From a virus (lineage: Duplodnaviria; Heunggongvirae; Uroviricota; Caudoviricetes): DNA of 17,046 nucleotides. A model generated the notes under the pieces. The model saw nothing but the letters and a program-made list of their open reading frames with translations. It did no database searches and had not been told where the DNA came from. The translations under genes and the position numbers were made by a program. Within the stretch, counting starts at the first letter, position 1. Each line of letters opens with the position of its first letter. Below, piece after piece: positions 1 through 14,856 of this stretch. Location: IMG/VR virus record IMGVR_UViG_2534682108_000005, positions 1-17,046 of that record; one strand, 5' to 3'.

Positions 1-70
1 TCCATTAAAAATGATGGACATTATTTTTGTAGAGCCAGAGGAAACAGACCAGACGGTTTAAATGAGCCGG

Positions 71-709
71 TTACAAGTGTTTTTCTGGCGTTGCATTATA
101 AATTTTTTGCCAGTCTTCCAGGGTGAGTCTGGATCTGGTCACTTTAGGGATCGGTTTACGGGTAGCCTCCGGAGGATTCCATCCAGGAGGAACTTCTCCC
201 GCATGCTGTGCTTCTTTATAAATATCAACCCATAATCCGCGATTTACTCTTGCTGTGCTGACCATGTCTTTATCCATCCACTCGTCCAGTATTAATGCAA
301 AGTCTCTTACCTCCAGTTCTTTCAATGGGTGGTTTCCCAGGCGGGAAACCAGGTATGCAGCCATTCGCACTTTTTCTTTGTGGGTTGTAGCTGCAATGTC
401 TCCATTTTTCAGTCGCGACTCCTGTATTTTCAGATATCGATCAACCCATGCCTTTAATCTGATACCCCGACGTTTTGTTGCTGATGGACTTTCATCAATT
501 TTGCGCATGAAATATTCTGCTTCTGCTGCAGCTATTCGCTGATTGGCTGTTGAAGCGATTTTTTCTGCCTTACCTTTGTCTGTTCCGAGTCCGTGAAATT
601 TTCCAGTCACAGGATTTTTATACTGGTAGTAAACTCTGCCAGTTCTGCGATCAAACTTTTCGTAAAGACCGGCTACGTCAGTGCTGTTTTTTCGTGGCCT
701 CGGTGACAT
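71..709 (-). pseudogene. Truncated lambdoid tyrosine integrase: only the N-terminal arm-binding/core-binding portion (212 aa) is present; the catalytic domain is missing
   Basis: The ORF ends ...TRSRLTLEDWQKIYNATPEKHL then TAA at 71-73. This aligns with the lambda Int region RRSRLTADEYLKIYQAA that precedes the catalytic domain. Full-length lambdoid integrases are about 350-410 aa. The 70 bp to the window edge does not continue the frame. Confidence 0.65.
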
Positions 710-956
710 GAGTTAAAATCTCCTTCAGTGCATCATCATCGCCAGTATGAATTTCCGGCGCAATTCCCGTTTCACCAGGCCCAACAAATACTGCTCGGCG
801 ATCTATCAGCCAACGCCCACGAATTTTTTGTGGTCTTGGAACGATGTATCCTAGTTTTCCGTATTTCACCAGGGTAGTGTTTGTTATTGGGAGACTGAAC
901 CGTTTTGGTTTCCACTCGTCGAGCGTTATCAGGTACTGTTCGCTCATGGCTATCAC
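678..956 (-). CDS. Excisionase (Xis-like), overlapping the integrase start
   Basis: The 92-aa ORF contains YLITLDEWKPKRF, resembling the lambda Xis N-terminus (YLTLQEW). It overlaps the int start by about 30 nt, as in xis-int operons. The start could be the internal Met at 947. Confidence 0.6.
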   Translation of the reverse strand: MIAMSEQYLITLDEWKPKRFSLPITNTTLVKYGKLGYIVPRPQKIRGRWLIDRRAVFVGPGETGIAPEIHTGDDDALKEILTHVTEATKKQH

Positions 957-1008
957 TCCGGAACGCGCCAGTTGCAGAATATCAACGACAACTGGCGACG
1001 GTTGAACA

Positions 1009-3480
1009 TTAAAAATCAGCCTGACTCGGGATCAGTTTTTGCCAGATAACTGAAACGTATTTTGCCTGGTAACGGGCGTCATCAAGTGCATTATGGCGCT
1101 CACCTTCGAATGGAATAGCCGTTCTGGCATCGAAGTCTATGGCTTTCCCCAGCTCAACGATTGTGCGTACATCGCGATCGTTGTAGTAACGCCACGGGCA
1201 GGGGATCCCCTGCCGTTCGTATGAACGGCGCAAAATCGTGTTGTCGAAGTTGGCTCCATTTCCCCAAACCTGAACAAAAAATTCACCGGAGTTTTCGTCG
1301 ATAAATTCCCGCAATTGTAACAGTGCATCATCTAACGGGATTTCATCGGTCATAATGGCAGATTGCGCTTCGCGTGATTGCTTAAGCCACCATTTAATGG
1401 TGTCCCGATCAATGACTCCGCCAGCAGTTTCCAGATTGATAGTCTTACTAAATTCCGGTCCCATATCTCCGGTTTGCGGATCGAAAAATATTGCACCTAT
1501 TGAGATGATCGGGGCATCAGGATTTTTTCCCATGGTTTCAAGGTCGATCATTAGATGGTCACACGTCCTGCTGGTGGATGTGATTTCGTGATGACCGTTC
1601 ATCTTAATTGGGTGATCTGCCGTCTCGCCAGTTTCATTATCGCTATTGTGATGCTGATTGCCGCCAGTGTTCTCCTTGTGTGGATGTTCAGTGCCTTCCA
1701 TTTCCTCCGGATCATCTTCCTGAACTTCAACCTGATACTCTTCATCGAATGTTTCCTGGTATGTTGCGTCGCCCATTACCGCGCCACAATCAGGGCAGTT
1801 ACCGCCGCCGGTCTGACCGCAGGCGGTGCAGACTTTTTCCACTTCCTGTTGCGCCACTGATTCAGGCTGTTTCGTTTCTGGCTCGTTTTGTAACGCATTT
1901 GGGCTGTTTTGTTCCGCTTTTTGGTAGTTCCGTTCCGATTCATGCTGGTTCTGGTTCACAGAATCGCGGGTCTGGATCCCCTTAACCCATTTCGGATCAT
2001 TCGGGTCACTAATCCCTTCAACAAATTCACCACGTGATGCAGCAAGCAACTTATCGGCGTCAGGCTGGATGATATTGGCTGCCTGCATAATTTTGTTTAC
2101 TTCGTCAGCGGTAACTTTTATCGGCTCTGGTTGTTCTGAATCTTCAGCGGTATCTACATTTTGCGGTAAGCCCGTGTATGTGCCATTTTTTCGGGCAAAA
2201 TATTCTTCTTTTGTGATTTCAGTGGCGCCAGCAGCCAGTGCCTTATCCAGACCAGAAAGTTTGTTTGCGCGACCGTATTTTTCTCCGTCCTTATCTGCGA
2301 AGAGGAAATAGAACGGCCCCTCACGCTCTACAGATGGTTCGACTTCCACTTTGCATTCGGTTTTTTCGTTGTCTGGAATTGCCGTTTCCACTGCATCAGT
2401 TTCTGGTACTGGCGACGAGAGAGTATCAGTTGCGCTCTGATTTGTTCCTTCATCTTCAAACACGCCCTTTGTAGTCAGGTATTCAGTAATGTATTTGTTC
2501 AGTGCCACAGGGTCTTTGTGAATGTCGATCGGACGTTCACGGACAAGGCCAAAAATAGTCTGGCGGTCGTAGCGAAGGGCATCAGGCTGTTTGCGCATTG
2601 ATGCCGAGATACGCTTCCAGTCTTCGCGGTCGTTGTCGATAACTTCATTTTTTGCCCAGCGATGGATGCTGCCGTCAATGTTTCCGGCATCCACATCACC
2701 AGGCCAGAGAGCGTAGGCCAGTTCGTCATCCAGTGTTTTCCATGTCTGCTTGTATTCGCGATGAATGGCAGCAATGACCGGGTTGATTTTTCCTGTTGAA
2801 TTTTCAGTGTGTTGTTGATTGGCTCTGGCGCGGGCGAGATCAACAACAGACGTGTATTTTCCGGCTTCCTTGCGTTCACCTTCGCGACGTTTTTTCCAGA
2901 TGCGCATCTCTGCCTGAATTTCGGGCCATTTGGCACCAGGCTTACATTTATGCTTAACCCACCCGATGGCATGCAGCTTAAGCTCCGGATACATAGCGTT
3001 AACTTCTGGCATTTTCATCAACGCTTCAACGATGTGGCCGTCGAATGTTGCCATGTCTTCCTGCAACAATTCCTGTGCGCTAATCACCATATCAACAGTG
3101 ATGTTTTCACATGTGTCGAACTTAACCATGACAGCGTTCTGTACTTCAGGGGCTAGGTTGTCAAAAGTGACGTTCATCGGATCGGATTCAGTCTCGACCG
3201 GGACAAAGGAAGCAGACGCCTCATCCCAGCGGTTTTCCTGCATATATTCAGCATCCCAGGAATCGAGGGCAGGGCGGGGTATACCGGGTTTATCCTCGCA
3301 AACAAGAAATTTATAAGCGCAGTCCTGAGCAGCCGGATAATGTTCCAGGAATTGCCAGTGAAATTTTGCGCGGGCGCGACGTTCATCACCGGCTTCAATG
3401 GCAGTGGCTACAGCGACGGCACCTTCTTCCTTTATTGCCTGTTCGTCCGGAATGGCGGCGCAAATAAAGACTTTACTCAT
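1009..3480 (-). CDS. Large phage exonuclease (823 aa) with a C-terminal DnaQ-like DEDDh 3'-5' exonuclease domain; the kind of protein usually annotated exodeoxyribonuclease VIII-like in lambdoid prophages
   Basis: Long uninterrupted ORF. The C-terminal ~180 aa carry exonuclease motifs (MIDLETMG, FDPQTGD, HNALDDARYQ). A CxxC...CxxC zinc-ribbon-like motif (CTACGQTGGGNCPDCG) sits in an acidic low-complexity middle region. Position between xis and the dicB-like operon fits a recombination module. Confidence 0.8.
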   Translation of the reverse strand: MSKVFICAAIPDEQAIKEEGAVAVATAIEAGDERRARAKFHWQFLEHYPAAQDCAYKFLVCEDKPGIPRPALDSWDAEYMQENRWDEASASFVPVETESDPMNVTFDNLAPEVQNAVMVKFDTCENITVDMVISAQELLQEDMATFDGHIVEALMKMPEVNAMYPELKLHAIGWVKHKCKPGAKWPEIQAEMRIWKKRREGERKEAGKYTSVVDLARARANQQHTENSTGKINPVIAAIHREYKQTWKTLDDELAYALWPGDVDAGNIDGSIHRWAKNEVIDNDREDWKRISASMRKQPDALRYDRQTIFGLVRERPIDIHKDPVALNKYITEYLTTKGVFEDEGTNQSATDTLSSPVPETDAVETAIPDNEKTECKVEVEPSVEREGPFYFLFADKDGEKYGRANKLSGLDKALAAGATEITKEEYFARKNGTYTGLPQNVDTAEDSEQPEPIKVTADEVNKIMQAANIIQPDADKLLAASRGEFVEGISDPNDPKWVKGIQTRDSVNQNQHESERNYQKAEQNSPNALQNEPETKQPESVAQQEVEKVCTACGQTGGGNCPDCGAVMGDATYQETFDEEYQVEVQEDDPEEMEGTEHPHKENTGGNQHHNSDNETGETADHPIKMNGHHEITSTSRTCDHLMIDLETMGKNPDAPIISIGAIFFDPQTGDMGPEFSKTINLETAGGVIDRDTIKWWLKQSREAQSAIMTDEIPLDDALLQLREFIDENSGEFFVQVWGNGANFDNTILRRSYERQGIPCPWRYYNDRDVRTIVELGKAIDFDARTAIPFEGERHNALDDARYQAKYVSVIWQKLIPSQADF

Positions 3481-3572
3481 TTTGTTTTACCTCATTACAG
3501 ATTTAAGGGTGAACAAATCCCTGCCATTGCTGGCATATAAGAATGAAATCGGATGTTTATTACGGAACTGTT

Positions 3573-3764
3573 TTAAAGACCTGCCGGGATTTCGTTATTA
3601 TCCTGGTGAATAACTTTATCGACCGGGTAACAGTTACCGGGAATTTTCTGTTCGGTTGCTGCAGTCACACACTCCTGCATTGTCCTGTGAACACTGACTG
3701 CAGTATCAACTGGCTCTCCGGAAACAAGAAAAACTGTCAGAACAAGTGCAAATGCTGTATTCAT
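3573..3764 (-). CDS. ydfD: Small hydrophobic N-terminus protein (63 aa), YdfD-like by size and synteny
   Basis: Start at MNTAFALVLTVFLVSG with an AAGGA Shine-Dalgarno 8 nt upstream. Its ATG overlaps the stop of the upstream gene (ATGA). Size and position after the dicB-like gene match Qin ydfD as I recall it; not verified by alignment. Confidence 0.5.
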   Translation of the reverse strand: MNTAFALVLTVFLVSGEPVDTAVSVHRTMQECVTAATEQKIPGNCYPVDKVIHQDNNEIPAGL

Positions 3765-3949
3765 TGCCAGCATCCTTTTTGTATCGGACGTAAACGGGCC
3801 AACATTGAAAGAATGCATATTTTATTTAATAGCTCCCGTTCGTGTTTTCTCTTGTTAATGGCATCTTCAGTAAATACAGGGTTACTGATAGTGACACCAA
3901 TTTCAAAACAACCTTCAGACGTATTAACGTTTGGTAATAACGTTTCCAT
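3761..3949 (-). CDS. dicB: DicB-like cell-division inhibitor (62 aa)
   Basis: 62-aa ORF (METLLPNVNTSEGCFEIG...) with a GAGGA SD 7 nt upstream, lying immediately downstream of the DicF sequence on the same strand and translationally coupled to the next gene. Size and synteny match Qin dicB. Confidence 0.55.
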   Translation of the reverse strand: METLLPNVNTSEGCFEIGVTISNPVFTEDAINKRKHERELLNKICILSMLARLRPIQKGCWQ

Positions 3950-4118
3950 TATCGCGTCCTCAACAATGAATTTTGTGATGCGGTGCCTGGTGCCTCCAGG
4001 TGACGTTAACCAGTTAACAATTAACGCCGGATACAGAGAATCCACCCATAACACTGTTTTTGGTTTTAACTGTTCCGCGTGCGCTTAGCCGCATTCACCG
4101 CATCACAAAATTCACTTT

Positions 4119-4176
4119 AAAAAGGGCGGCAGAGCAGTCACGGAGTAAAACTGATACCGCCAAACGTCACCAGAAA
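4119..4176 (-). ncRNA. dicF: DicF small RNA (ftsZ-targeting antisense sRNA of Qin-type prophages) with its intrinsic terminator
   Basis: Minus-strand sequence UUUCUGGUGACGUUUGGCGGUAUCAGUUUUACUCCGUGACUGCUCUGCCGCCCUUUUU matches the DicF sequence as I recall it, including the 3' GC-rich stem and U-run. It sits between the ydfC-like and dicB-like genes as in Qin. Confidence 0.8.
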
Positions 4177-4517
4177 ATTGATAACAGAGGGCGTTGCAGC
4201 GGGATTGTCACTTAAGCGTATGGTCAACCTGACAACCCGGTGTCCTCAACGGGGGAAGGAATAACCCCGCCATACTTACCGCCGCGCCATTTCGCGGATT
4301 GCCACAACCGGAAGCGCACGGTCGACGAAAATTTAACGACAGGCTATCTATGAACCAGCTACCTCGCCGTGCGCTTTCGCGTTATGGTCTGACTTTTCAG
4401 GGAAATATCCTTTCAGTAAACTGTCAGTGCCGGATGCTCACCCGTGTCCGGCGCACGCACTCCACCTCACCCGTGGAGAACTCCTTAATTACCAACCTTA
4501 GCTTCGTTGGTTAGCTA

Positions 4518-4736
4518 TTAACGCGGGTATGTAATCATTCTGGCAATGCTTAATGCCGCTGCTTTTTCCAGATTGGTGATATCCTGCTCCAGAGCGGACA
4601 GATTTTCAGCCTGCTTAGCCCTGGCTTCATTGGCCCATTTCAAATCCTGCGCTGCATTAATTTTCTGGCGCATCCACTCATAAAGTTCATCATTGGTATA
4701 GTCTGGCGCGATGATGACGGGTTCTCGTTTCTGCAT
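4518..4736 (-). CDS. ydfC: Small protein (72 aa), YdfC-like by size and synteny
   Basis: 72-aa ORF third in the leftward small-gene operon, upstream of dicF. Size matches Qin ydfC. No catalytic motif recognised. Confidence 0.5.
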   Translation of the reverse strand: MQKREPVIIAPDYTNDELYEWMRQKINAAQDLKWANEARAKQAENLSALEQDITNLEKAAALSIARMITYPR

Positions 4737-4765
4737 ACTGATTCCTCGCGGTGCTGTTTCGCTTA

Positions 4766-4894
4766 TCAGCCGTTAGATTTTGCCGAACTGGAAAGCGCCT
4801 GTTTAAATTCGTTGAAGCTGAGAGCTTCTTCGCCTTCGGCAAGACCTTCGAAGTATTCTTCGTAAGCCTTTTCCATGATAGTGTCGAAATCCAT
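4766..4894 (-). CDS. ydfB: Small acidic protein (42 aa), YdfB-like by size and synteny
   Basis: Not in the ORF track because it is under 60 aa. Manual translation gives MDFDTIMEKAYEEYFEGLAEGEEALSFNEFKQALSSSAKSNG. An AGGTGA SD lies 5 nt upstream of the ATG at 4894; stop TGA at 4766-4768. Size matches Qin ydfB. Confidence 0.45.
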   Translation of the reverse strand: MDFDTIMEKAYEEYFEGLAEGEEALSFNEFKQALSSSAKSNG

Positions 4895-4895
4895 A

Positions 4896-5132
4896 TCACT
4901 CACCTGAGTTTCTTTCCAGCCAGCGACGGGCACCATTTTCGGTTTTAAACGTTTTGCTTTTGGTATACGTCATCGCGGTGAACGTACCGTCCTGGTTGGG
5001 GAACACGCCACATACCAGAGATTCGCTGTTGCCAAGATCGATAGTATCCATGCTGACATCATTTCCCCTTAACGCCGGGGTAGCGGAACAAAAACCTGCT
5101 GCATAGTTATTAAAGTTGAACCCTGCCGTCAT
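4896..5132 (-). CDS. ydfA: Small protein, YdfA-like; 78 aa from the ATG at 5132, or 51 aa from the internal ATG at 5051
   Basis: First gene of the leftward operon downstream of the terminator and operator site. The longer form has a GAGG SD about 9 nt upstream; the internal start gives the 51 aa I recall for Qin ydfA. Start not resolved. Confidence 0.45.
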   Translation of the reverse strand: MTAGFNFNNYAAGFCSATPALRGNDVSMDTIDLGNSESLVCGVFPNQDGTFTAMTYTKSKTFKTENGARRWLERNSGE

Positions 5133-5258
5133 GTTCTTACGCCTCGGGCTGGCTACTTAACCCCTGACCACTGCCGGGTAACTCGAAGTATTGCCTGGCG
5201 TTCTGTGGGGCGGGGTGGGTTGATGAATGAACAATACCACTACTATTTAATTATGTAA

Positions 5259-5271
5259 ATAGCAATGCTAT
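5259..5271. promoter_or_regulatory. Operator-like palindrome ATAGCAaTGCTAT in the promoter region of the leftward ydfA-dicB-like operon
   Basis: Two 6-bp inverted arms (ATAGCA/TGCTAT) around a central A, inside an AT-rich putative promoter between the terminator and the first operon gene. Near-identical sites occur in the repressor/cro intergenic region. Confidence 0.5.
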
Positions 5272-5282
5272 TATCGTAGCAA

Positions 5283-5306
5283 GAAAAAAACCACCCGAAG
5301 GTGGTT
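5283..5306 (-). terminator. Rho-independent terminator ending the repressor/toxin-antitoxin transcript
   Basis: On the minus strand: stem ACCACC, loop of 4 nt, stem GGTGGT, followed by a run of 8 U, 15 bp downstream of the ParE-like stop. Confidence 0.65.
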
Positions 5307-5320
5307 GTTGACAGGAAGGA

Positions 5321-5611
5321 TTAACAGGTTTTGTTTGGATACTGTCTTCGTGAGTGAACTACATTTACGATCTCGATGTTAGATGCTGTTACTCGGTAAA
5401 GTATTATATAGTTAGGATGAGTCACTATCTCACGAAGACTTGGAACTCTTTCGCTCGGTGGGTACAGATAAGGGTGTTCAGTAAGTGACAAAACTGATGT
5501 TTCAATGCGTATTTTTAGTCTACGTGCAGCGGGAGGGTTTTCCTTAGCAATATAGGCTACGATCTGACGTAAATCATCACGTGCAGAAGGTAGCCATAAA
5601 ATGGGCAGCAT
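5321..5611 (-). CDS. parE: ParE/RelE-superfamily toxin (96 aa) of a type II toxin-antitoxin module
   Basis: Size, basic C-terminus and overall pattern (...HPNYIILYRVTASNIEIVNVVHSRRQYP) resemble ParE toxins. Its start overlaps the stop of the upstream small gene by 1 nt, the typical antitoxin-toxin arrangement. Confidence 0.7.
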   Translation of the reverse strand: MLPILWLPSARDDLRQIVAYIAKENPPAARRLKIRIETSVLSLTEHPYLYPPSERVPSLREIVTHPNYIILYRVTASNIEIVNVVHSRRQYPNKTC

Positions 5612-5802
5612 TACTCACTCCTGTTCGTTGCAGCTAATTGAGCAATAAGGTTTTCCATTTCAGCCATTACTTCGTCATGTGGAATTGCAGGACGGGGATC
5701 TGAGAGGCTTGCTGCCACTTTGGCTCGCAACCATTCGTTATAGCTGTTTTCTTGTTCGACTGTTTCAAATTCAGAAATTATCGGGGAAAGGGCTGTACTC
5801 AT
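5611..5802 (-). CDS. Antitoxin (63 aa) cognate to the ParE-like toxin; PaaA-like
   Basis: Small acidic protein (MSTALSPIISEFETVEQENSYNEWLRAKVAASLSDPRP...) directly upstream of and coupled to the toxin gene. It resembles, from memory, PaaA-type antitoxins of the three-component paaR-paaA-parE systems of E. coli O157 prophages. Confidence 0.6.
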   Translation of the reverse strand: MSTALSPIISEFETVEQENSYNEWLRAKVAASLSDPRPAIPHDEVMAEMENLIAQLAATNRSE

Positions 5803-5819
5803 GTTTTGACCTCCTCAGA

Positions 5820-6320
5820 TTAGGCGCGACGACCCTTTTGCGCAGCTAGCCATCGCGCAACGATTTCTTCAATTGATTCTTTTTTCTCCTTCATTTCCTT
5901 AAGCATTTTCTCTTTATCTTCTTTGGGGAAAGCCCTGAACGTCTGGAGCAAATCCCGCTCCATGGGGTCTATATTAAACGGAAGTTCGTTTTCCGATTGT
6001 TCCATATCTGCAGATATAGTGACAACATTGTCCTCCCCAGATTCTTGGGGATACATCCTTACAATTTGTAACAACTCGGCCATATCTGGTCTGATTGACT
6101 CGGGAGGAACTTGCAGCAACCCTGCGAACTTGATAACAGCCTCAAGATTTAAAGGTGTCTGACCATTTAGATAATGGCTTACAGCTCCCTGTGTCGAAAA
6201 TCCCAGAATTTCTGCCGCACGCTCTTGGGTTAATCCTAGTTGATTTTTTTTCGCCGTCCAGATTTCTTTCAGTCTCTGGGCGGCTTGCAGGTCGATCTCT
6301 GACAGGGATTTTCTTTTCAT
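5820..6320 (-). CDS. XRE-family HTH repressor (166 aa) at the immunity position; DicA/PaaR-like, lacking an S24 peptidase domain
   Basis: N-terminal HTH (LTQERAAEILGFSTQGAVSHYLNG) and a charged helical C-terminus (KEDKEKMLKEMKEKKESIEEIVARWL), architecture like DicA. Divergent from the Cro-like gene, and directly upstream (18 bp) of the antitoxin-toxin pair on the same strand. Confidence 0.75.
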   Translation of the reverse strand: MKRKSLSEIDLQAAQRLKEIWTAKKNQLGLTQERAAEILGFSTQGAVSHYLNGQTPLNLEAVIKFAGLLQVPPESIRPDMAELLQIVRMYPQESGEDNVVTISADMEQSENELPFNIDPMERDLLQTFRAFPKEDKEKMLKEMKEKKESIEEIVARWLAAQKGRRA

Positions 6321-6427
6321 ACCTTCAATTCTAATAAGATTATTAATCTCTTTGAAATAGTAATGCTATTTACTTTTAAAAATAACAATGATATTAATGA
6401 TCGTGATGACATCACATGAGGTGAACA
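6321..6427. promoter_or_regulatory. Divergent immunity promoter/operator region with several palindromes
   Basis: AT-rich 107-bp intergenic region containing TAATAAgaTTATTA (6333-6346), ATAGTAaTGCTAT (6357-6369), ATAACAaTGATAT (6382-6394) and GTGATGaCATCAC (6403-6415). The GAGGTGA SD for the Cro-like gene is at 6418-6424. Confidence 0.6.
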
Positions 6428-6703
6428 ATGAATCTTGGAGAATATTTGCATCATTCCGGTATAACTCAGAAGCATTTTGCTGAAATTGTTGGGGTAACCC
6501 AGGGGATGGTAAGCCATGTCATTACCGGACGGGCGAAACTTACGGGGGAAAAAATTTTACGTTGGTGCGAAGCAACAGGCTGGATAGTAACTCCGCACGA
6601 GATTGATAGCAGTACTTATCCCAACCCAACCGACGGCTTACCTGTCGAGTTTCAGGCTAACACACAACCAGAGGCGGGGGTGATTCATGAAAATCAAGCA
6701 TGA
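6428..6703 (+). CDS. Cro-like small HTH regulator (91 aa), YdaS/DicC-type
   Basis: Divergent from the repressor. HTH signature KHFAEIVGVTQGMVSHVITGRAKLT; strong SD; overlaps the start of the next gene. Confidence 0.65.
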   Translation: MNLGEYLHHSGITQKHFAEIVGVTQGMVSHVITGRAKLTGEKILRWCEATGWIVTPHEIDSSTYPNPTDGLPVEFQANTQPEAGVIHENQA

Positions 6704-7112
6704 ACACATCCGCATGGCGATGAATGCGTGGGCATATCCTGACGGTGAGAAGGTGCCAGCTGCTGCTATTGCCAGAGCGTATTTTGAACTGGGGATGACA
6801 TATCCCGAGTTGCACAACGACGACAGGCACAACGCGCTCTATCTCAACACCCAAAAGATTTTCCGTTGGCTGGATAAAGACACTCCTGATGCTGTTGAGA
6901 AAATTCAGGCATTGTTACCGGCGATCGAAAGGGCAATGCCACCTCCGCTGGTAGCCCGAATGCGCAGCCACAGTTCCGCTTATTTTCGGGAGCTGGTGGA
7001 GACGCAGGAACGGCTAGTGAAAGATATCGATGATTTCGTTGCATCAGCGATCGTTCTGTTCGACCAGATGAATCGTGGTGGTCCGGCGGGTAATTCCGTG
7101 GCTGTGCATTGA
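6687..7112 (+). CDS. YdaT-like protein (141 aa), in the CII-like position downstream of cro
   Basis: The N-terminus MKIKHEHI and the ~140 aa length match what I recall for Rac YdaT. Position immediately after the Cro-like gene. Function assigned by position only. Confidence 0.5.
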   Translation: MKIKHEHIRMAMNAWAYPDGEKVPAAAIARAYFELGMTYPELHNDDRHNALYLNTQKIFRWLDKDTPDAVEKIQALLPAIERAMPPPLVARMRSHSSAYFRELVETQERLVKDIDDFVASAIVLFDQMNRGGPAGNSVAVH

Positions 7113-7183
7113 CTGAAAATATTTATACCGGATCGCTTCCGGCAATTCGTGAGTAAAAAGATTCGGTCTCAGAAGAGGTGAGT

Positions 7184-8224
7184 ATGGCTAATGCCTGGCT
7201 CAGATTATGGCATGACATGCCAAATGACCCTAAGTGGCGAACAATTTCCAGGGTGTCAGGACAGCCAATCGCAACAGTGATGGCTGTGTATATCCACCTT
7301 CTGGTGAGCGCGTCACGAAATGTCACGACATGTCACGGCGTGTCACTACGTGGTCACATTGATGTCACAACGGAAGATTTAGCAAGTGCACTTGATGTGA
7401 CGGAAGAAGTAATTGATTCAATTTTGCAGGCGATGCAGGGGCGGGTGCTTGATGGAGATTTAATCACTGGATGGGAAAAACGCCAGGTAGCGAAAGAGGA
7501 TAACGGCAATGTTTCGCAAACCGCGAAATCCCCGGCAGAGCGTAAGAGAGCACAACGCGAGAGGGAAAAATTACGAAAACAGAATGAGGGGTGTCACGAT
7601 GAGTCACGCATATGTCACGACATGTCACTACGAGTCACGACAGATAAAGATACAGATAAAGAATTAAACCCCACACATAACGCGCGCGTGCGCGAGAGTG
7701 CTCCGACCAGTGAATTGAACGGTACGCCGTTGCAGGCAGCGGAACCTGATTACCAGGAAAGCCTGAGCGAACCCATCGGGAAGTTTCCGATGGCCGGTGG
7801 CTGGCATCCGTCGCCGGATTTTCGACGGCGGGCTGCACTGTGGGGAGTGGCTCTGCCGGAGCCTGAATTTACACCTGCTGAACTTGCCGCCTTCAGGGAC
7901 TACTGGGCAGCGGAGGGGAAAGTTTTTACGCAGGTTCAGTGGGAGCAGAAATTCGCCCGTCACGTAAATCACGTCAGGGCGCAGGTTAAACCAGTCAGCA
8001 AGGGGGGGCGTCATTCAGCAGCACCAGGTGGCACCGCATCACGGGCAGTTCGGGAAATTCGGGCAGCACGTGAGCAGTGGGAACGTGAAAACGGATTTGT
8101 CAGCGACGGAAACGGCGTGGAAGCTGTGGGAGCTCATGGGGGAGGTTTATTCAAACCGCTGGACTCAGAAGAACGGGGCCGCACCTTCGAAGCTCTGGAT
8201 TGCCCAGATTGGCGCGATGACTGA
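7184..8224 (+). CDS. Replication initiator (O-like) with a DnaT-like C-terminal region; contains the putative origin iterons
   Basis: N-terminus MANAWLRLWHDMPNDPKWRTI is typical of phage replisome-organiser N-domains. Two clusters of GTCAC repeats lie inside the gene and a P-like gene follows. Start ambiguous between GTG 7178 and ATG 7184. Confidence 0.6.
   Translation: MANAWLRLWHDMPNDPKWRTISRVSGQPIATVMAVYIHLLVSASRNVTTCHGVSLRGHIDVTTEDLASALDVTEEVIDSILQAMQGRVLDGDLITGWEKRQVAKEDNGNVSQTAKSPAERKRAQREREKLRKQNEGCHDESRICHDMSLRVTTDKDTDKELNPTHNARVRESAPTSELNGTPLQAAEPDYQESLSEPIGKFPMAGGWHPSPDFRRRAALWGVALPEPEFTPAELAAFRDYWAAEGKVFTQVQWEQKFARHVNHVRAQVKPVSKGGRHSAAPGGTASRAVREIRAAREQWERENGFVSDGNGVEAVGAHGGGLFKPLDSEERGRTFEALDCPDWRDD
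7312..7368. repeat. Iteron array 1: six GTCAC-core repeats at 10-11 bp spacing
   Basis: cgTCACgaaa tgTCACgaca tgTCACggcg tgTCACtacg tggTCACatt gatgTCAC; cores at 7312, 7322, 7332, 7342, 7353 and 7364. Confidence 0.7.
7593..7670. repeat. Iteron array 2 (five GTCAC-core repeats) followed by an AT-rich tract with a tandem CAGATAAAGA repeat; candidate replication origin
   Basis: GTCAC cores at 7593, 7603, 7614, 7624 and 7633, then cagataaagatacagataaagaattaaa. Direct repeats plus an adjacent AT-rich region inside the initiator gene mirror lambda ori architecture. Confidence 0.6.
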
Positions 8225-8678
8225 ACAGCAAATCCGGCTGGTCTGCCGTCAGTGCATGGACCGCTGCCGGGCGGGTGAAACGTGGCCCCCGGACCTGGCT
8301 GAGTTTGTTGCGCTGATTTCGGAGAGTGGGGCAAATCCATTTGGTCTTACGGTGGATGCCGTGATGGAAGAGTACCGGCGCTGGCGCAATGAATCCTGGC
8401 GGTACGACGGGAGTGATAAATACCCGTGGCCACAGCCTGTGCTGTACCACATTTGCCTCGAGATGCGCACCAGAGGGATTGAACGTCAGATGACTGAAAG
8501 TGAGCTGAAACGACTTGCAGAACGACTGTTGACCAAATGGGCAAAGAATGTTGGTAACGGCATGAGTGTTCCGCCAGTGCGACGACAACTGGAAGGGCCA
8601 AAACACCCGCCAGGGCCAACGCCAATTGAGTTACTGAAACAGGAATATGAGCGCCGGAAAGCGGCTGGTTTTGTCTGA
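8028..8678 (+). CDS. Replication protein P-like (lambda P family, helicase loader)
   Basis: C-terminal half aligns by eye to lambda P (YPWPQPVLYHICLEMRTRG...TESELKRLAERLL versus lambda YPWKSNAHYWLVTNLYQNMR...TDAELRRKAADELV). The ORF begins with GTG at 8028 and overlaps the O-like gene; alternative starts are ATG 8136 and ATG 8217, the latter overlapping the O stop. Confidence 0.6.
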   Translation: MAPHHGQFGKFGQHVSSGNVKTDLSATETAWKLWELMGEVYSNRWTQKNGAAPSKLWIAQIGAMTEQQIRLVCRQCMDRCRAGETWPPDLAEFVALISESGANPFGLTVDAVMEEYRRWRNESWRYDGSDKYPWPQPVLYHICLEMRTRGIERQMTESELKRLAERLLTKWAKNVGNGMSVPPVRRQLEGPKHPPGPTPIELLKQEYERRKAAGFV

Positions 8679-8711
8679 ATTTGAGAAATGATTTTGTCGG
8701 AGGAAATTTTA

Positions 8712-9425
8712 ATGGAAACCGTTTTTGACGCACTGAAAGCACTGAAAAGAGCCTCTTCACAGGAGGTGTCGGCCCGCCTTGGAATCAGCCGCGAAGATGC
8801 TGTCAACGAGCTGTGGAAGCTGAAACGCCGTGGTGAAGCAGATAACAAGGGGTCGATGTGGTGGCTGACGATTGAGGCAACTGAAATGGTCACAAAAACC
8901 ACTGCGGAGATGCTGATTAACGCAATTGAACAGCATGGTCCTCAGTCGGCTGACGAACTGGCGTTAATGTTCGGGATTACCTCCCGCCGGGCGAATTCAA
9001 CGCTGGCAATGGCAATAAGCAAAGGTCGTCTGATTCGAGTAAATCAGAACGGTAAATTTCGTTACTGCCTGCCGGGCGATAATTTACCAGCAGAGCCGAA
9101 AGCTGCATCGGTAACGGAAACTGCTGGTAAAGCCTTTCCTCAGACAGCAGGTGTTGCGTTACCAGTCCGGGAAGCGGAAACACAGGAAGAAATTAAAACT
9201 GAAAGTGTGGCGGTCACAGTGCAGTCACAGCCGTCGTTCACCAGAAAGCATCCGGATAGTCTGATTTTACCATCGCTGCATGTGGCTAACCGCGAACTGC
9301 GCCGGGCAAAAGGTCAGGTTCAGAAGTGGGAGCGAGTCTGTGCTGCGCTGCGTGAGCTGAACAAGCACCAGGATATTGTTCGACAGATTACTGATTCATC
9401 CTGTTGTGTTGCATCAGAAAAGTGA
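8712..9425 (+). CDS. Hypothetical phage protein (237 aa) with two tandem winged-helix-like repeats
   Basis: GGAGG SD 9 nt upstream of the ATG at 8712. Internal repeat pattern L..A......S..ELA..LGIS....A...L.KL...G at residues ~5-50 and ~70-115. No catalytic motif recognised. Confidence 0.5.
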
Positions 9426-9440
9426 TTGCAGGGGACGCTG

Positions 9441-9857
9441 ATGGCAAGAGTATTTACACCAGAAGAGCGGGAAAAAATTAAGGGGCAGGTTGTTGAACTC
9501 GTACGCCAGAGCGGTCGCGAGACGTTACGGCAACTGGAAGCTAAAACAGGTGCAACAAGATATCTGGTGAGCGTTCTCGCCAGAGAGCTGGTTGCCAGTG
9601 GTGATGTATACAACTCTGTCTACGGGTTATTTCCGTCTGAACAGGCTCGTAAGGACTGGCAAAATGCCCGAAAAAAACTCACTAGGGCAAGGGCGAAGAA
9701 ACCCGCTGTGGTTGATCCGGGCCTTATCTGGTCATTAGATGACGGAGAAATACGTCGCTACGACAGGCGTCATAATATAATTTGTAATGAGTGCCGTAAC
9801 AGTGAAGTGATGCAGAGAGTTTTGATATTTTACACAGGAGTAATGATGGAGCAGTGA
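9441..9857 (+). CDS. Hypothetical phage protein (138 aa) with one winged-helix-like segment and a C-terminal Cys-containing tail
   Basis: AGGGGA SD before the ATG at 9441. The segment VELVRQSGRETLRQLEAKTGATRYLVSVLARELVASGDV resembles the repeats of the preceding gene. The 3' end runs into the AT-rich island. Confidence 0.45.
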   Translation: MARVFTPEEREKIKGQVVELVRQSGRETLRQLEAKTGATRYLVSVLARELVASGDVYNSVYGLFPSEQARKDWQNARKKLTRARAKKPAVVDPGLIWSLDDGEIRRYDRRHNIICNECRNSEVMQRVLIFYTGVMMEQ

Positions 9858-10221
9858 AAACAATATGAAATCTTTAGCTTCTGGTATTGTAACAGATGGG
9901 AAAAGTGTAGATATATGGAAATTGCATAGCAATAATTCGCAGCATGGATGCTATTCGTATGTTGATAAAGTGGTCCCAGTATGCGAGTGTAAGAGTTGAA
10001 CCAGTTCCAACTAAGAAATTGGGGGGATAATATAGAAGGTGGCTAAGTGAATGTGCTTATGATTATCTGAAAAACAAATGGAATGTTTTAATGGGTCTAA
10101 GAACACAGCAATGCACAAATTAGGGGTTATCTTTTACTGTGCTTATTAATATGCTCAATGACCCATTAGGATTGGTGTCAGTTATGTTAGCCAGAGTGAT
10201 AAAGTGATTATATCTCTGCTG

Positions 10222-10995
10222 TTATATGCTGAAATGAGTAATACTATTCCAGAGTGCAGCAGCGAAAGTCTCCTGATGATTGAGTTCTGGAAATTGTACG
10301 ACAGAAAAATTACTATATTTTTCTGCTAAAATATTTTTCAAAACAGATTCTGCTTTAATGGCTTCAGGATATAAAGATGTGGAGTAATCAAGGCTAAGAT
10401 CTCCGCTAAGTAAGCATATACTTTTAGTATGCTTTGATTCTGGCATGTCATTTTTTATGATCTTGATGATTCTTTCATCCTGCCATAGAAGTGATGGTGC
10501 TGAGATATAATAATAGTTAAAACATGAATTATTTTTTAAACAATCAAGAACAAAAATAGCACCTAGTGAGTGTCCCCATATACCGAGTTTTGAGGATGTC
10601 GGAACAATGGTGCTGACCCAGGGCATGATCTGAGTTAGCAATAATTCTCGGAAACTCTGACTTCCTCCACCAGTGAAGTAGATCCATGCTGGTTTGGAGT
10701 TATCAATAATAGCATTTTCACCACCAGGAGTGTAATCGTAAGCACGGCGGTGAATATTAAGCTTATCCAAAGATTCGTAACTCAGTGTAACTAACACTGG
10801 TGGATTGGGTAGTGCATCAATAACAGGAAGAATATCAGAAATGTTATTGTTGGCGCTATTTCCATCAAGTATATAAAGAGTTGTATTATTTTTTTTAATG
10901 TTTTTTGGAGTAAAAACGCATATTTTATATTTTGTGTCATAGTTAATTGAGTTAAATATGCGTGTTTGACAATGAATGTCCATGTGTTTAGTCAT
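10222..10995 (-). CDS. Alpha/beta-hydrolase serine esterase (257 aa) in an AT-rich island; cargo gene on the opposite strand
   Basis: GHSLG nucleophile-elbow motif (G-x-S-x-G) in LGIWGHSLGAIFVLDCL, consistent with the esterase D/Fes-like fold. No signal peptide seen. GGGGAG SD upstream. Markedly lower GC than flanking phage genes. Confidence 0.7.
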   Translation of the reverse strand: MTKHMDIHCQTRIFNSINYDTKYKICVFTPKNIKKNNTTLYILDGNSANNNISDILPVIDALPNPPVLVTLSYESLDKLNIHRRAYDYTPGGENAIIDNSKPAWIYFTGGGSQSFRELLLTQIMPWVSTIVPTSSKLGIWGHSLGAIFVLDCLKNNSCFNYYYISAPSLLWQDERIIKIIKNDMPESKHTKSICLLSGDLSLDYSTSLYPEAIKAESVLKNILAEKYSNFSVVQFPELNHQETFAAALWNSITHFSI

Positions 10996-11102
10996 ACGTT
11001 CTCCCCATGAGCATTAAAGGATTATTAAGATATGCTATGTCACTGATGAACAATTTGTTGTATGAATCTAGGTTTTTTATCTACCTCCATTATGATTTAA
11101 TC

Positions 11103-11121
11103 GCTGATATATGTTATCAGC
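11103..11121. promoter_or_regulatory. Inverted repeat GCTGATA-n5-TATCAGC in the promoter region of the esterase gene
   Basis: 7-bp perfect inverted arms separated by 5 bp, about 110 bp upstream of the esterase start, next to a candidate -10 (CATAAT on the minus strand). Confidence 0.4.
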
Positions 11122-11699
11122 AAAGGTACATCGTTACTGTTTTACTTGTCAATACATTTGATATTGATTCTCGTTCGCATCGTTTGTTCAGGGATTTGAA
11201 GACAGATAACTGCTATGTCAATGAACCAACCCACAGTCCAACGTACTTCAGCAAAATATGGCGTCGGGATATAGCACCCTGATATTCACCACGGCAAACA
11301 CACGCCGAGAGTGTTTTTTTATCGTCGTATGTACGTGCACATCTGAATAATGGCAGGCGAATGTGATAGCCGAAAAGCTCACCGTGCGGTGATCCGGTAG
11401 TTTCACCCTGTACGTCTCATAACCCGATGATTGAGACCTTAAGCAAAACAATAACAAGGGAGCGTCATTATGACCACTCAAACTGATTTCATATTGGCGA
11501 TGTAATGGGAAGTTAAGTAGAATGGCAGCGGGTGCTTGAGGCTATCTGTCTCAGGCATGAACACCAAAAGGCAGATAGAGAAAAGCCCCAGTTAACATTG
11601 CGCGTCCGGCAAGACGCTTAACATTAATCTGAGGCCATATCTATGCTCTACACACGTAGGTTAGCCTCTTACGTGCCGAAAGGCAAGGAGAAGCAGGCT

Positions 11700-11855
11700 A
11701 TGAAGCAGCAAAAGGCGATGCTAATCGCCCTGATCGTCATCTGTTTAACCGTCATTGTGACGGCACTGGTAACGAGGAAAGACCTCTGCGAGGTATGAAT
11801 CCGAACCGGCCAGACGGAGGTCGCTGTCTTCACAGTCTACGAACCTGAGGAGTAA
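11700..11855 (+). pseudogene. hokD: hok/gef-family type I toxin gene (HokD/RelF-like) interrupted by an in-frame TGA at codon 33
   Basis: Translation MKQQKAMLIALIVICLTVIVTALVTRKDLCEV, then TGA at 11796-11798, then in frame IRTGQTEVAVFTVYEPEE and TAA at 11853-11855. This matches HokD as I recall it, with the stop where Arg is expected. AGGAG SD 9 nt upstream. Structured leader (CTATCTG...CAGATAG) upstream and a 3' stem-loop at 11862-11884. Confidence 0.7.
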
Positions 11856-11923
11856 GAGACCAGGCGGGGGAGAAATCTCCCGCCACCTCTGATGTGTCAG
11901 GCATCCTCAACGCACCCGCGCTT

Positions 11924-11950
11924 AACCCGCTTCGTCGGGTTTTGTTTTTT
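11924..11950 (+). terminator. Rho-independent terminator downstream of the hok locus
   Basis: Stem AACCCG, 6-nt loop, stem CGGGTT, followed by TTTTGTTTTTT. Confidence 0.6.
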
Positions 11951-12022
11951 CCTGGCATTCTGGTTTACAATTCGCACGTCAGCCTGAACAACTGGCACCT
12001 GCTGCGCCAGCAGAGACAACCG

Positions 12023-12301
12023 ATGGCGCACGATACCAAATCACACAATTCTGATAATTCAGCCGTCTTTGCCAGCAGGCACGGGCGGCGTTTGCACGCA
12101 TTTAAAACTCGCTGGTATCAGCACCCTCCATGCACTGAAGAACAGGCTGAATGGCTAATTCAGAGCTACCGCAGACGTGGCTATGAGGTTCAGAAAGATC
12201 TCAGCCTCGACCGACTGCACTGGATAATCTCTGTGAGGCTCCCTTACTCCGAGCGCCCACCGCGTCCATCCCGCACATTCCAGCAACGTATCTGGAGGTA
12301 A
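12023..12301 (+). CDS. Hypothetical protein (92 aa) in the position occupied by rem in Qin
   Basis: The ORF track extends it to a GTG at 11894, but that region contains the terminator; the first ATG is at 12023. Its stop is adjacent to the next gene's start. No motif recognised. Confidence 0.4.
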   Translation: MAHDTKSHNSDNSAVFASRHGRRLHAFKTRWYQHPPCTEEQAEWLIQSYRRRGYEVQKDLSLDRLHWIISVRLPYSERPPRPSRTFQQRIWR

Positions 12302-12302
12302 C

Positions 12303-13352
12303 GTGCGGGTATTACTTCGACCTGTTCTTGTGCCAGAACTCGGGCTGGTGATCGTTAAGCCGGGCCATGAATCCATGCCGGTATTCCAAAATACCCGGGT
12401 ACTGGTGGAGCCGGAACCGAAAAGCATGCGTAATCTGCCGTCCGGGGTCGTTCCTGCCGTTCGCCAGCCGCTGGCGGAGGATAAATCATTACTGCCATTT
12501 TTCAGCGACGAACGAGTGATTCGTGCTGCTGGTGGCGCTGGCGCATTGTCTGACTGGTTACTGCGCCATGTTAAATCCTGCCAGTGGCCACACGGCGATT
12601 ATCACCACAGTGAAACCGTCATTCACCGTTATGGCGCTGGCGCGATGGTGTTGTGCTGGCACTGTGACAACCAGCTGCGTGACCAGACATCCGAATCACT
12701 CGGGCAACTTGCTCATCAAAACCTGTCAGCATGGATGATTGACGTCATACGCCATGCAATGAATGGCACGCAGGAGCGGGAATTGTCGCTGGCTGAATTA
12801 TCCTGGTGGGCGGTCTGCAATCAGGTGGCGGACGCGCTTCCGGAGGCAGTATTACGTCGTTCTCTGGGGTTACGTGCGGAAAAAATCCGCTCGGTGTATC
12901 GCGAAAGCGACATCATACCGGGAGAGCAGACCGCCACCAGCATACTGAAGCAGCGCACAAAAAATATTGCGCCGCCGTCTCACGCCCGCCAGCAACAGAA
13001 CCCACCACAGGAAAAGACGGTGGTATGCATCACCGTTGATCCGGAGTCTCCGGAATCTTTCATGAGGCGACCTAAACGTCGCCGTTGGGTAAATGAGAAA
13101 TATACGCGCTGGGTGAAGACACAGCCGTGTGCGTGTTGTGGTCAGCCAGCCGACGATCCCCATCACCTGATTGGTCACGGTCAGGGAGGGATGGGAACAA
13201 AGGCCCACGATATTTTCACGCTACCGTTGTGCCGGGAACATCACAACGAACTTCATGCGGATCCGCTGGCGTTCGAAGAAAAGCATGGTTCTCAGATTGA
13301 TTTAATTTTTCGTTTTCTTGATCACGCCTTTGCAACTGGCGTGCTTGGGTAA
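12303..13352 (+). CDS. ydfU: DUF968-like protein (349 aa), YdfU-like, with a C-terminal Cys/His-rich putative nuclease or zinc-binding motif
   Basis: GTG start with a GGAGG SD 4 nt upstream. C-terminus PCACCGQPADDPHHLIGHGQGG...LCREHHNELH. Size and position before rusA and Q match Qin ydfU as I recall it. Confidence 0.6.
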   Translation: MRVLLRPVLVPELGLVIVKPGHESMPVFQNTRVLVEPEPKSMRNLPSGVVPAVRQPLAEDKSLLPFFSDERVIRAAGGAGALSDWLLRHVKSCQWPHGDYHHSETVIHRYGAGAMVLCWHCDNQLRDQTSESLGQLAHQNLSAWMIDVIRHAMNGTQERELSLAELSWWAVCNQVADALPEAVLRRSLGLRAEKIRSVYRESDIIPGEQTATSILKQRTKNIAPPSHARQQQNPPQEKTVVCITVDPESPESFMRRPKRRRWVNEKYTRWVKTQPCACCGQPADDPHHLIGHGQGGMGTKAHDIFTLPLCREHHNELHADPLAFEEKHGSQIDLIFRFLDHAFATGVLG

Positions 13353-13364
13353 AAGAGGTGACTG

Positions 13365-13724
13365 ATGCTCATAGATTTGGTTTTACCTTACCCGCCGACG
13401 GTGAACACTTACTGGCGACGCCGTGGCAGCACATATTTTATCTCGGAGGAGGGAAAGCGTTATCGCCGGGCTGTGGCGCTTATTGTTCGCCAGCAGCGGC
13501 TGAAATTAAGCCTGTCCGGAAGGCTGGTGATAAAGGTGATTGCAGAGCCACCGGATAAGCGTCGTCGCGACCTGGACAACATTCTGAAAGCACCGCTGGA
13601 TGCGCTGACGCATGCGGGAGTGCTCATTGATGACGAGCAGTTTGATGAAATCAATATTGTACGTGGTCAGCCAGTATCTGGTGGACGGCTGGGTGTGAAG
13701 ATTTACAAAATTGAGAGTGAGTGA
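13365..13724 (+). CDS. rusA: Holliday-junction resolvase RusA
   Basis: 119 aa with VIAEPPDKRRRDLDNILKAPLDALTHAGVLIDDEQ, matching the RusA catalytic region (DRRRRDLDN...DALT). Position before Q as in DLP12/82-type prophages. Confidence 0.85.
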   Translation: MLIDLVLPYPPTVNTYWRRRGSTYFISEEGKRYRRAVALIVRQQRLKLSLSGRLVIKVIAEPPDKRRRDLDNILKAPLDALTHAGVLIDDEQFDEINIVRGQPVSGGRLGVKIYKIESE

Positions 13725-13732
13725 GCGTAAAT

Positions 13733-14284
13733 ATGATATATCCGGAAATTACAGGCAAAAGCGGCGAACATTTACGCCTGAACACGCTGGAAGCAGTCTG
13801 GATCCAGGGGAAATTACGGATGTGGGGGCGGTGGTCGTATATCGGTGGGGGTAAATCCGGAAATATGTTTAACCGGTTACTGGTTTCGAAAAAGCTGACG
13901 AAAACAGCAGTTAATGAGGTTTTGCGCAGAATGAAGAAATCCGGGCTGGAAAAACCGGAACTTGAGGCATTTTTTCGGGATATGACAAGAGGAAAGCAGA
14001 AGAGCTGGTTGTCACATTGTACAGACACAGAGGCGTTGATTATTGATCGCGTTATCAGTAAGGTGCTTGGGGAATATCCTGGACTAATCAATGTTCTCCG
14101 GCAAAGGTACGAAGGACGGGGAATGAGCAAACTGAAAATGGCCGAAAGGTTAAATGCAGATCATCCTGATTGGTCGTTGGTTACGTGCAGACGCCGAATT
14201 GATCAATGGTTGGGGGTATCTGAATTTATGTTATATGCCCCCATGCGCATGGCTTTTGTTACAGAGAAAAATGTTGCAAACTGA
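13733..14284 (+). CDS. Late-gene antiterminator Q-like protein
   Basis: Position immediately after rusA and before a promoter-plus-terminator pair. A WGRWS motif loosely resembles Q-family proteins. Start may be GTG 13721, overlapping the rusA stop. Confidence 0.5.
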   Translation: MIYPEITGKSGEHLRLNTLEAVWIQGKLRMWGRWSYIGGGKSGNMFNRLLVSKKLTKTAVNEVLRRMKKSGLEKPELEAFFRDMTRGKQKSWLSHCTDTEALIIDRVISKVLGEYPGLINVLRQRYEGRGMSKLKMAERLNADHPDWSLVTCRRRIDQWLGVSEFMLYAPMRMAFVTEKNVAN

Positions 14285-14311
14285 TCAATAAACTGCTTCA
14301 ATCCGTATAAG
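14282..14311 (+). promoter_or_regulatory. Candidate late promoter (pR'-like): -35 TGATCA, 18-bp spacer, -10 TATAAG
   Basis: Sigma70-like hexamers directly after the Q-like stop, followed about 50-70 nt later by an intrinsic terminator; the lambdoid pR'/tR' arrangement. Confidence 0.4.
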
Positions 14312-14364
14312 CTTCGCAAAGCTGTATCGCGAGGCGAAACGCAAGTTTTTTTCGCAAAAGGAAG

Positions 14365-14385
14365 CCACCGGAAGGTGGTTTTTTT
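14365..14385 (+). terminator. Rho-independent terminator (tR'-like) downstream of the candidate late promoter
   Basis: Stem CCACC, loop GGAA, stem GGTGG, followed by TTTTTTT. Confidence 0.65.
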
Positions 14386-14508
14386 GTGTCCGCGATATAC
14401 AGTAGCGCAATAAATTCGCTGGTGGTTATTAATACCGTTCTTTCAGCTTGCTGGCTTTTTCGACAAGAGTTATTGGTGTGTCACGTTAACCGGAAAAGGG
14501 AAAAAGAC

Positions 14509-14706
14509 ATGCTAAAACAGCAGGATATGACAGAAACCGCCAGAGTGGTGTTTAATGAATTAAGCGTTACCGAACCGGCGACAGTCGGGGAGATAGCGCA
14601 GAATACTTACCTTTCACGCGAACGCTGCCAGTTAATACTGACCCAGCTTGTTATGGCGGGTCTGGCAGACTATCAGTTCGGTTGTTACAGACGCCTTCAG
14701 TCCTGA
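14509..14706 (+). CDS. Small putative winged-helix DNA-binding protein (65 aa)
   Basis: First ATG with a purine-rich SD (AAAGGGAAAAAG). The segment VVFNELSVTEPATVGEIAQNTYLSRERCQLILTQLVMAGLAD resembles the wH repeats in the post-P genes. Followed by a terminator. Confidence 0.4.
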   Translation: MLKQQDMTETARVVFNELSVTEPATVGEIAQNTYLSRERCQLILTQLVMAGLADYQFGCYRRLQS

Positions 14707-14715
14707 AGGCTTTTT
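14692..14715 (+). terminator. Rho-independent terminator
   Basis: Stem GCCTTCA, 4-nt loop, stem TGAAGGC, followed by TTTTTTATTT, overlapping the stop of the small gene. Confidence 0.6.
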
Positions 14716-14856
14716 TATTTGTGGTAAATGGGCGGCTGGTGGGTGTTAGGGGCACTCACCAGCCATCTGCTCATGCGTCTGGATCACAAGCAAACCTCAG
14801 GCCCATTGCTTTGCGCAAAAGCAGAATGAGCCTATCAGAGACAAGCTTAATGATCC

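Follow-up and report, generated by a model that had tools for sequence, protein, structure and literature searches.

What is a solitary serine esterase gene, lying in a sharply AT-rich island and transcribed against the phage operons, doing in a lambdoid prophage of Escherichia coli? The question is raised by a 17,046-nt stretch of DNA (IMG/VR record IMGVR_UViG_2534682108_000005, positions 1 to 17,046; hereafter the window), for which an original prediction, made from the letters alone, had described a 257-aa alpha/beta-hydrolase with a GHSLG nucleophile elbow and had named siderophore esterases among its possible relatives. The gene occupies 10222..10995 on the minus strand (774 nt; WP_000160657), and its counterpart in enterohaemorrhagic E. 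coli (EHEC) is WP_000160654, equal to ECs_1077. The 257-aa product is almost certainly a divergent member of the IroE/PfeE/BesA siderophore-esterase family, of the IroE type and leaderless; the assignment rests on sequence and fold.

In a phmmer search against all PDB sequences, the best match was IroE of uropathogenic E. coli (2gzr; E = 2e-25, residues 8-250), followed by BES (E = 5e-11), PfeE (E = 6e-11), a Shewanella 'IroE-like serine hydrolase' and the fungal siderophore esterases EstA and EstB. The PF00756 'Putative esterase' profile matched marginally, at 22.6 bits against a cut-off of 22, and an NCBIfam search of the protein gave no match. We modelled the structure with AlphaFold (AF2) from a 63-sequence alignment, which yielded a single-domain fold with a predicted local distance difference test (pLDDT) score of 89.3 and a predicted template-modelling (pTM) score of 0.91; a model built from the single sequence was unusable (pLDDT 47) and was discarded. 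When the structure was compared with the PDB by Foldseek, all of the top 30 matches were siderophore esterases, headed by IroE (2gzs/2gzr) with template-modelling (TM) scores of 0.78-0.82. The siderophore-esterase link, one option among several in the original prediction, has thereby become specific: IroE is the best match both by sequence and by fold, and the subfamily is IroE-type.

The GHSLG motif lies at residues 141-145. With the constant offset of 40 in the phmmer alignment, S143, H240, D44 (in LDGN) and R84 (in RxYDYTP) correspond to S189, H287, D90 and R130 of IroE, of which D90 and R130 are reportedly important for catalysis. These four columns are invariant across the 63 sequences; S143 and H240 are also kept in all intact alleles, and the protein retains all 20 family-invariant columns. 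A check for an intact Ser-Asp-His triad had been proposed for the hydrolase. The serine and the histidine are present, and the triad turned out to be the wrong test, because IroE works by a Ser189-His287 dyad rather than a triad, as stated in the part of PMC10515146 that cites Larsen 2006. At D199, where the acid residue usually lies, the EHEC allele has Asn, which is consistent with a Ser-His dyad.

Comparison with characterised esterases revealed both likenesses and differences. IroE, the salmochelin/enterobactin trilactone hydrolase of the iroA locus (2GZR/2GZS), shares 27-28% identity with the prophage protein across the whole domain, is likewise a single alpha/beta-hydrolase domain without a lid, and has its Ser189, His287, Asp90 and Arg130 matched by equivalents. 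Unlike IroE, the prophage esterase has no N-terminal membrane anchor or signal, and its gene (guanine-plus-cytosine (GC) content 0.35) stands alone in a prophage, outside any iroBCDEN cluster; its neighbours are phage replication genes, DUF977 and hok, with no linkage to iroBCDN. PfeE, the ferric-enterobactin esterase of Pseudomonas aeruginosa (6GI0), has the same nucleophile elbow and a similar fold (TM 0.74-0.80), but it is more distant in sequence (E = 6e-11) and is periplasmic. The Bacillus ferri-bacillibactin esterase BesA/BES (2QM0) is of the same family and fold (E = 5e-11, TM 0.76), yet it is far more distant than IroE (46 versus 93 bits) and is encoded by a Firmicute chromosomal gene of the bacillibactin regulon. 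With Fes and IroD, the cytoplasmic enterobactin and salmochelin esterases, the protein would share compartment and substrate class, and their catalytic domain is distantly related (Foldseek E ~1e-9). Fes differs in having an N-terminal lid domain and a Ser-His-Glu triad (PMC10515146), whereas the 257-aa protein is single-domain, and only the C-terminal domain of Fes aligns (target-normalised TM 0.46).

The N-terminus sets the protein apart from most of its homologues, 53 of 60 of which carry a hydrophobic leader. In those 53 the maximum 12-residue hydropathy is at least 2.0, compared with 0.03 in the first 45 aa of the prophage protein, so that the lack of a signal peptide, already remarked upon in the original prediction, holds. 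Only 7 residues precede the His8 column and first strand in the query, versus a median of 46 in the homologues. A remnant of a leader was sought upstream by three-frame translation and by tblastn of homologue N-termini, which returned noise only, and the reading frames upstream of the esterase ATG are full of stop codons. A Shine-Dalgarno sequence, GGGGAG, is located at 11001..11006 on the minus strand, 5 nt before the ATG, and is invariant in all alleles. Given the stops in the upstream frames, the missing remnant and the strong Shine-Dalgarno sequence, we consider this a proper leaderless protein; it spans essentially the whole crystallised IroE catalytic domain. Because it has no N-terminal signal or anchor, the esterase is probably cytoplasmic. 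BesA is a leaderless cytoplasmic member of the family, and since IroE scores 93 bits against 46 for BES, the comparison implies a secondary loss of the leader inside the enterobacterial branch of IroE-like proteins.

The esterase gene was found in 471 of 5,426 complete E. coli genomes. The window's allele accounts for 13 of them and an allele of about 91% identity for the other 458, including O157:H7 (EDL933 and Sakai among them), O26, O145 and O103; a third allele, 93% identical, comes from IMG/VR. The Sakai copy is ECs_1077, annotated as 'hypothetical protein', in prophage Sp4 (L030 8312-9085). Sp4 also carries pchA (L030 18366-18680), labelled 'transcriptional regulator PchA', a positive regulator of the locus of enterocyte effacement (LEE) island. 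In PHROGs the esterase belongs to phrog_8493, 'unknown function'. Outside E. coli, an exhaustive search of 1.84 billion cluster representatives detected no relative sharing more than about 35% identity, and a scan for close relatives in one genome per species likewise found none. The nearest relatives are proteins of about 300 aa from Pantoea and Mixta (Erwiniaceae); of the homologues outside E. coli, the closest, from Candidatus Pantoea deserta, is encoded by a stand-alone gene. None of 50,697 deposited phage records carries the esterase clade: there were only four matches, all below 30% identity, which include genes of the iroE type in two large records named Acinetobacter phage MD-2021a and a Salmonella contig. 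A pattern-based scan of 2.9 million IMG/VR viral contigs with generic IroE motifs revealed no other phage-borne member.

Could the gene be what is left of a periplasmic iroE-like gene, truncated at its 5' end, decaying and carried as a functionless passenger in defective prophages? It does lack the leader that nearly all homologues have, the prophages that host it are defective, with an integrase cut by an IS66-family element, and damaged copies exist: the gene is split by an insertion sequence (IS) element in a few O26 strains, and one of 18 IMG/VR copies is frameshifted. Against decay, however, the 257-aa frame is intact in 467 of the 471 genomes (at coverage of at least 80%), the remaining 17 IMG/VR copies are intact with every motif, and the pairwise ratio of non-synonymous to synonymous substitution rates (dN/dS) among the three alleles is 0.16-0.25, with dS up to 0.32. 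The Shine-Dalgarno sequence and an upstream block are invariant, all catalytic residues are kept, and nothing substantial of the crystallised catalytic domain is missing. These data show that the gene is intact and selectively maintained; since the selection analysis contradicts it, we regard decay as very unlikely.

Another possibility would be export by a non-Sec route, for instance through type III secretion in LEE-positive E. coli, with the enzyme acting outside the bacterial cytoplasm. The low GC content and prophage location resemble those of non-LEE effector genes, the major allele is that of O157:H7, O26, O145 and O103, and pchA is present in Sp4. Nevertheless, the roughly 7 residues before the first beta-strand leave too little room for the disordered stretch that a secretion signal typically needs. 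The gene is situated in the early-right region and not at the tail-fibre-proximal effector loci, and no homology to effectors was seen. We consider secretion scarcely probable.

The original prediction had also given the gene a promoter-like region of its own and an inverted repeat, and both could be located. The 250 nt upstream of the ATG are better conserved than the 3' flank and hold a block that is invariant across the three alleles. Within this block a promoter-like site is predicted at 11089..11117 on the minus strand, with a -35 element ATAACA (11117-11112), a 17-nt spacer and a -10 element CATAAT (11094-11089), matching 9 of 12 consensus positions. A second -35 candidate, a perfect TTGACA, lies in the same block, at 11152-11147 on the same strand. 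The inverted repeat is a perfect palindrome, CTGATAtatgtTATCAG (CTGATA-N5-TATCAG), at 11104..11120, which overlaps the first -35 element and the spacer. The predicted fold of the 5' untranslated region was no better than that of shuffles.

Because the protein is a siderophore-esterase homologue, we tested the upstream region for Fur boxes, scoring sites against the 7-1-7 motif TGATAATnATTATCA with 14 informative positions. Two Fur-like boxes were detected, both in the block invariant across alleles. Box 1, at 11105..11119, has 11 of 14 matches, lies inside the palindrome and overlaps the -35 element and spacer; box 2, at 11159..11173, has 11 of 14 matches in the window and 12 of 14 in the EHEC allele, and adjoins the TTGACA candidate. 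When the AT-rich 255-nt region upstream was dinucleotide-shuffled, two or more such sites turned up in only 0.4-0.6% of the shuffled sequences (P ~0.005). A scan with the 19-mer Fur consensus was set aside, as it gave only 13-14 of 19 matches and no discrimination. Upstream of the P. deserta homologue, by about 60 nt, is a Fur-box match of 15 of 19 positions (L008/L009 7925-7945). Taken as sequence signals, these sites suggest that the esterase gene may be under Fur control.

On the 3' side of the esterase stop codon there is a long stable hairpin followed by a U-rich stretch (10090..10168, minus strand), the base of whose stem is kept in the EHEC allele. The 186-nt stretch that holds it (10040-10225) has a minimum free energy of -39.5 kcal/mol (z = -3.7), and none of 200 shuffles folds as well. 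The hairpin is possibly the mRNA 3' end or a terminator; it is not canonical, and a strict scan for intrinsic terminators gave no relevant match. Short inverted repeats within the coding sequence were judged to be due to chance.

The composition of the locus marks it as foreign to the phage operons around it. Between about 9600 and 11400, GC content in 400-nt windows falls from about 0.50 to 0.31-0.42, confirming the sharp drop described between the replication module and hok. Segment 9833-11249 has a GC content of 0.354, compared with 0.494 in the remainder of the window, and the esterase coding sequence has a GC content of 0.348 and a third-position GC content (GC3) of 0.283, the lowest among 23 annotated genes, in line with the foreign composition originally proposed. 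The AT-rich module at 9833..11249, consisting of the esterase gene with its 3' and 5' flanks, is common to all three alleles, and homology to the EHEC allele is unbroken up to 11249. The esterase is its sole conserved gene and runs antiparallel to the early-right operon, as had been stated. Two further open reading frames, 9865-9999 and 11007-11282 (both plus strand), were rejected as genes: in the EHEC allele, which is 91% identical, a stop codon or a frameshift interrupts each of them, and neither is annotated by the Prokaryotic Genome Annotation Pipeline (PGAP), so that the island holds one gene only.

The island occupies a slot whose content varies. Prophages that carry different cargo are collinear with the window as far as the 3' end of the DUF977 gene (9815-9832) and again from the start of hok/sok (11484-11510); the island drawn earlier at 9770-11300 is real, with a right limit that needed to be moved slightly outwards. 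An unannotated, allele-specific spacer of 234 bp at 11250..11483 (GC 0.466) separates the esterase module from hok/sok and was found in 13 of the 5,426 genomes only, always alongside the window's esterase allele. Delimited a little more widely, at 11245-11485, this segment measures 241 bp and has a GC content of 0.47. In lambdoid prophages of the Qin/Rac/Sp4 type, the slot is bounded by the DUF977 (ydaW-like) gene and hok/sok. In related prophages it holds a 2.4-kb AAA-family ATPase gene (L006 4033-6429), the epoxyqueuosine reductase gene queH (L005 4500-5165), or DUF7167 and Ea22-like genes (L004 4873-6032), and in K-12 Qin the position beside hokD is taken by relE, relB, ydfV, flxA and ydfW, which bears out the comparison with Qin drawn in the original prediction. 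The esterase is variable prophage cargo. Its description as recently acquired cargo stands for the cargo, given the alternative genes in the slot and the presence in 471 of 5,426 genomes, and is not supported for the recency: the three alleles found in this slot are separated by dS values of up to 0.3, which argues for long residence of the gene in the prophage pool. The slot as such appears to be a cargo hotspot in E. coli prophages that may hold defence genes.

Does the cargo serve the phage itself? An anti-defence role had been raised for the hydrolase, and one may picture the enzyme degrading a small-molecule signal, or altering use of the FepA receptor in superinfection exclusion. The slot does hold defence-like cargo elsewhere (the large AAA ATPase, relBE), and the neighbouring genes are exclusion and maintenance genes. 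For anti-defence, however, we obtained nothing in support: a PADLOC search of the esterase matched 0 families at E<=0.01, and the gene opposes the lytic operon, so antisense transcription would silence it in lytic growth. We know of no defence signal that is an ester of the kind cleaved by IroE-type enzymes. A phage-serving role is improbable.

We infer instead the following model, which we hold with slightly better than even confidence. The island would be a single-gene moron, expressed on its own in the lysogen, as an iron-repressed gene whose product hydrolyses catecholate trilactones in the cytoplasm. Transcription would start at the gene's own predicted promoter, convergent to the phage early-right operon; lytic transcription would be antisense to the esterase gene, which fits expression in the lysogen. 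Fur would repress the gene when iron is plentiful. Since the N-terminal signal or anchor by which IroE and PfeE reach the periplasm has been lost, the esterase would stay in the cytoplasm and hydrolyse the ester bonds of catecholate-serine trilactones such as enterobactin, combining the chemistry of IroE with the cellular location of Fes or BesA. The result may be an altered release of iron, or a shift in the proportions of cyclic to linear catecholates, in lineages of E. coli such as O157:H7, with a presumed benefit to the host. The gene resembles other lambdoid prophage morons in its atypical GC content, opposed orientation, predicted promoter and 3' hairpin, and patchy presence among collinear prophages; it differs from them in that its cargo is a siderophore-esterase homologue.

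Several observations weigh against this model. Identity to any characterised esterase is only 27-28% and the PF00756 score is barely above threshold, so substrate specificity may have drifted. The esterase gene is unlinked to siderophore transport or synthesis genes, and no siderophore genes lie beside the closest Pantoea homologues (for P. deserta, none with transport function within 8 kb), so context cannot support the substrate assignment. The Fur-like boxes depart from the motif at 2-3 positions, and of the two promoter candidates neither is strong. A cytoplasmic esterase, Fes, is already present in E. coli, which blurs the benefit of a second one, and a library search of the literature by locus tag and accession returned no paper naming ECs1077 or the WP accessions. 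The first two of these points, together with identities of 27-35% to characterised members and the 'unknown function' label of PHROG 8493, would also be expected if the protein were an active IroE-fold esterase retargeted after leader loss to a substrate other than a siderophore. That substrate could be another ester, a lactone or a depsipeptide, such as a metabolite from host or microbiota, an acylated sugar or a toxin. Such retargeting sits poorly with the retention of every family-invariant column, D44 and R84 included, with a structural neighbourhood made up of siderophore esterases in 30 of the top 30 matches, and with Fur-like boxes both here and upstream of the nearest homologue. It is the most serious competitor of the siderophore model, and we judge it possible but clearly less probable.

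The surrounding prophage was also characterised. A defective lambdoid prophage in E. coli O157:H16 strain Res13-Lact-PEA12-26 matches the window with 100% identity. The genes of the window run from the IS66-truncated integrase, xis and exo through ydfD, dicB, DicF and ydfCBA to a relBE pair, a cI-like gene, a cro-like gene and ydaT; then come DnaT-like and P-like replication genes, DUF1627, DUF977 and, on the opposite strand, the esterase gene; and finally hok/sok, DUF968, rusA, DUF1133, a methyltransferase gene and tRNAs. Rfam matches in the window comprise DicF, sok, STnc100 and three tRNAs. The integrase gene (1-709; L001 1-2210) is cut by the IS66-family element ISCro1, and because of this truncation the prophage is probably fixed in place. 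The RelE/RelB toxin-antitoxin pair (5321-5802, minus strand) is flanked by ydfA and the cI-like repressor gene; the relBE of K-12 Qin adjoins hokD, and therefore the same cassette occupies different slots among related prophages. Both borders of the cargo slot lie outside the cargo. On the left is the DUF977 (YdaW-like) gene (9441..9857, plus strand; PGAP annotation of the identical record), and on the right the hok/sok locus (11530..11798, plus strand), where the Rfam match to sok RNA is intact at 116 bits. The hok toxin gene (11700-11855, plus strand) has a premature stop at codon 33 (CGA to TGA), with the remaining frame still readable; the O26 copy encodes an intact 51-aa HokD. Downstream of the DNA methyltransferase gene, tRNA genes for Ile, Arg and Arg are followed by a match to the small RNA STnc100 (134.6 bits), together spanning 15956-16512 on the plus strand.

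The fold, the chemistry and a generic annotation ('hypothetical protein' or 'alpha/beta hydrolase') were known already. What is new is that a previously uncharacterised EHEC prophage gene is placed in the IroE family, that it has lost its leader, and that it stands as the only phage-borne IroE-family clade found in the scans made, the scan of IMG/VR being pattern-based. The assignment yields a specific hypothesis, namely a phage-borne cytoplasmic esterase of catecholate siderophores. Enterobactin and salmochelin are both hydrolysed by IroE; in Salmonella, the linear enterobactin products of IroE and Fes give protection against peroxide, and E. coli is said to encode no IroE homologue (PMC7403778). 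We put forward only tentatively that an EHEC prophage carries an iron-regulated cytoplasmic IroE-type enzyme which changes the catecholate siderophore output of the lysogen, for example by linearising apo-enterobactin before export or by releasing iron from foreign trilactones. If so, strains of the O157:H7 type would gain part of the benefit that IroE brings to Salmonella through peroxide-protective linear enterobactin products (PMC7403778), and the gene would become the first example of a phage moron with a demonstrated action on siderophore metabolism. In a major pathogen, prophage cargo would then be tied to the acquisition of iron or to protection from oxidative stress, and an enzyme would have changed its compartment simply by losing its leader.

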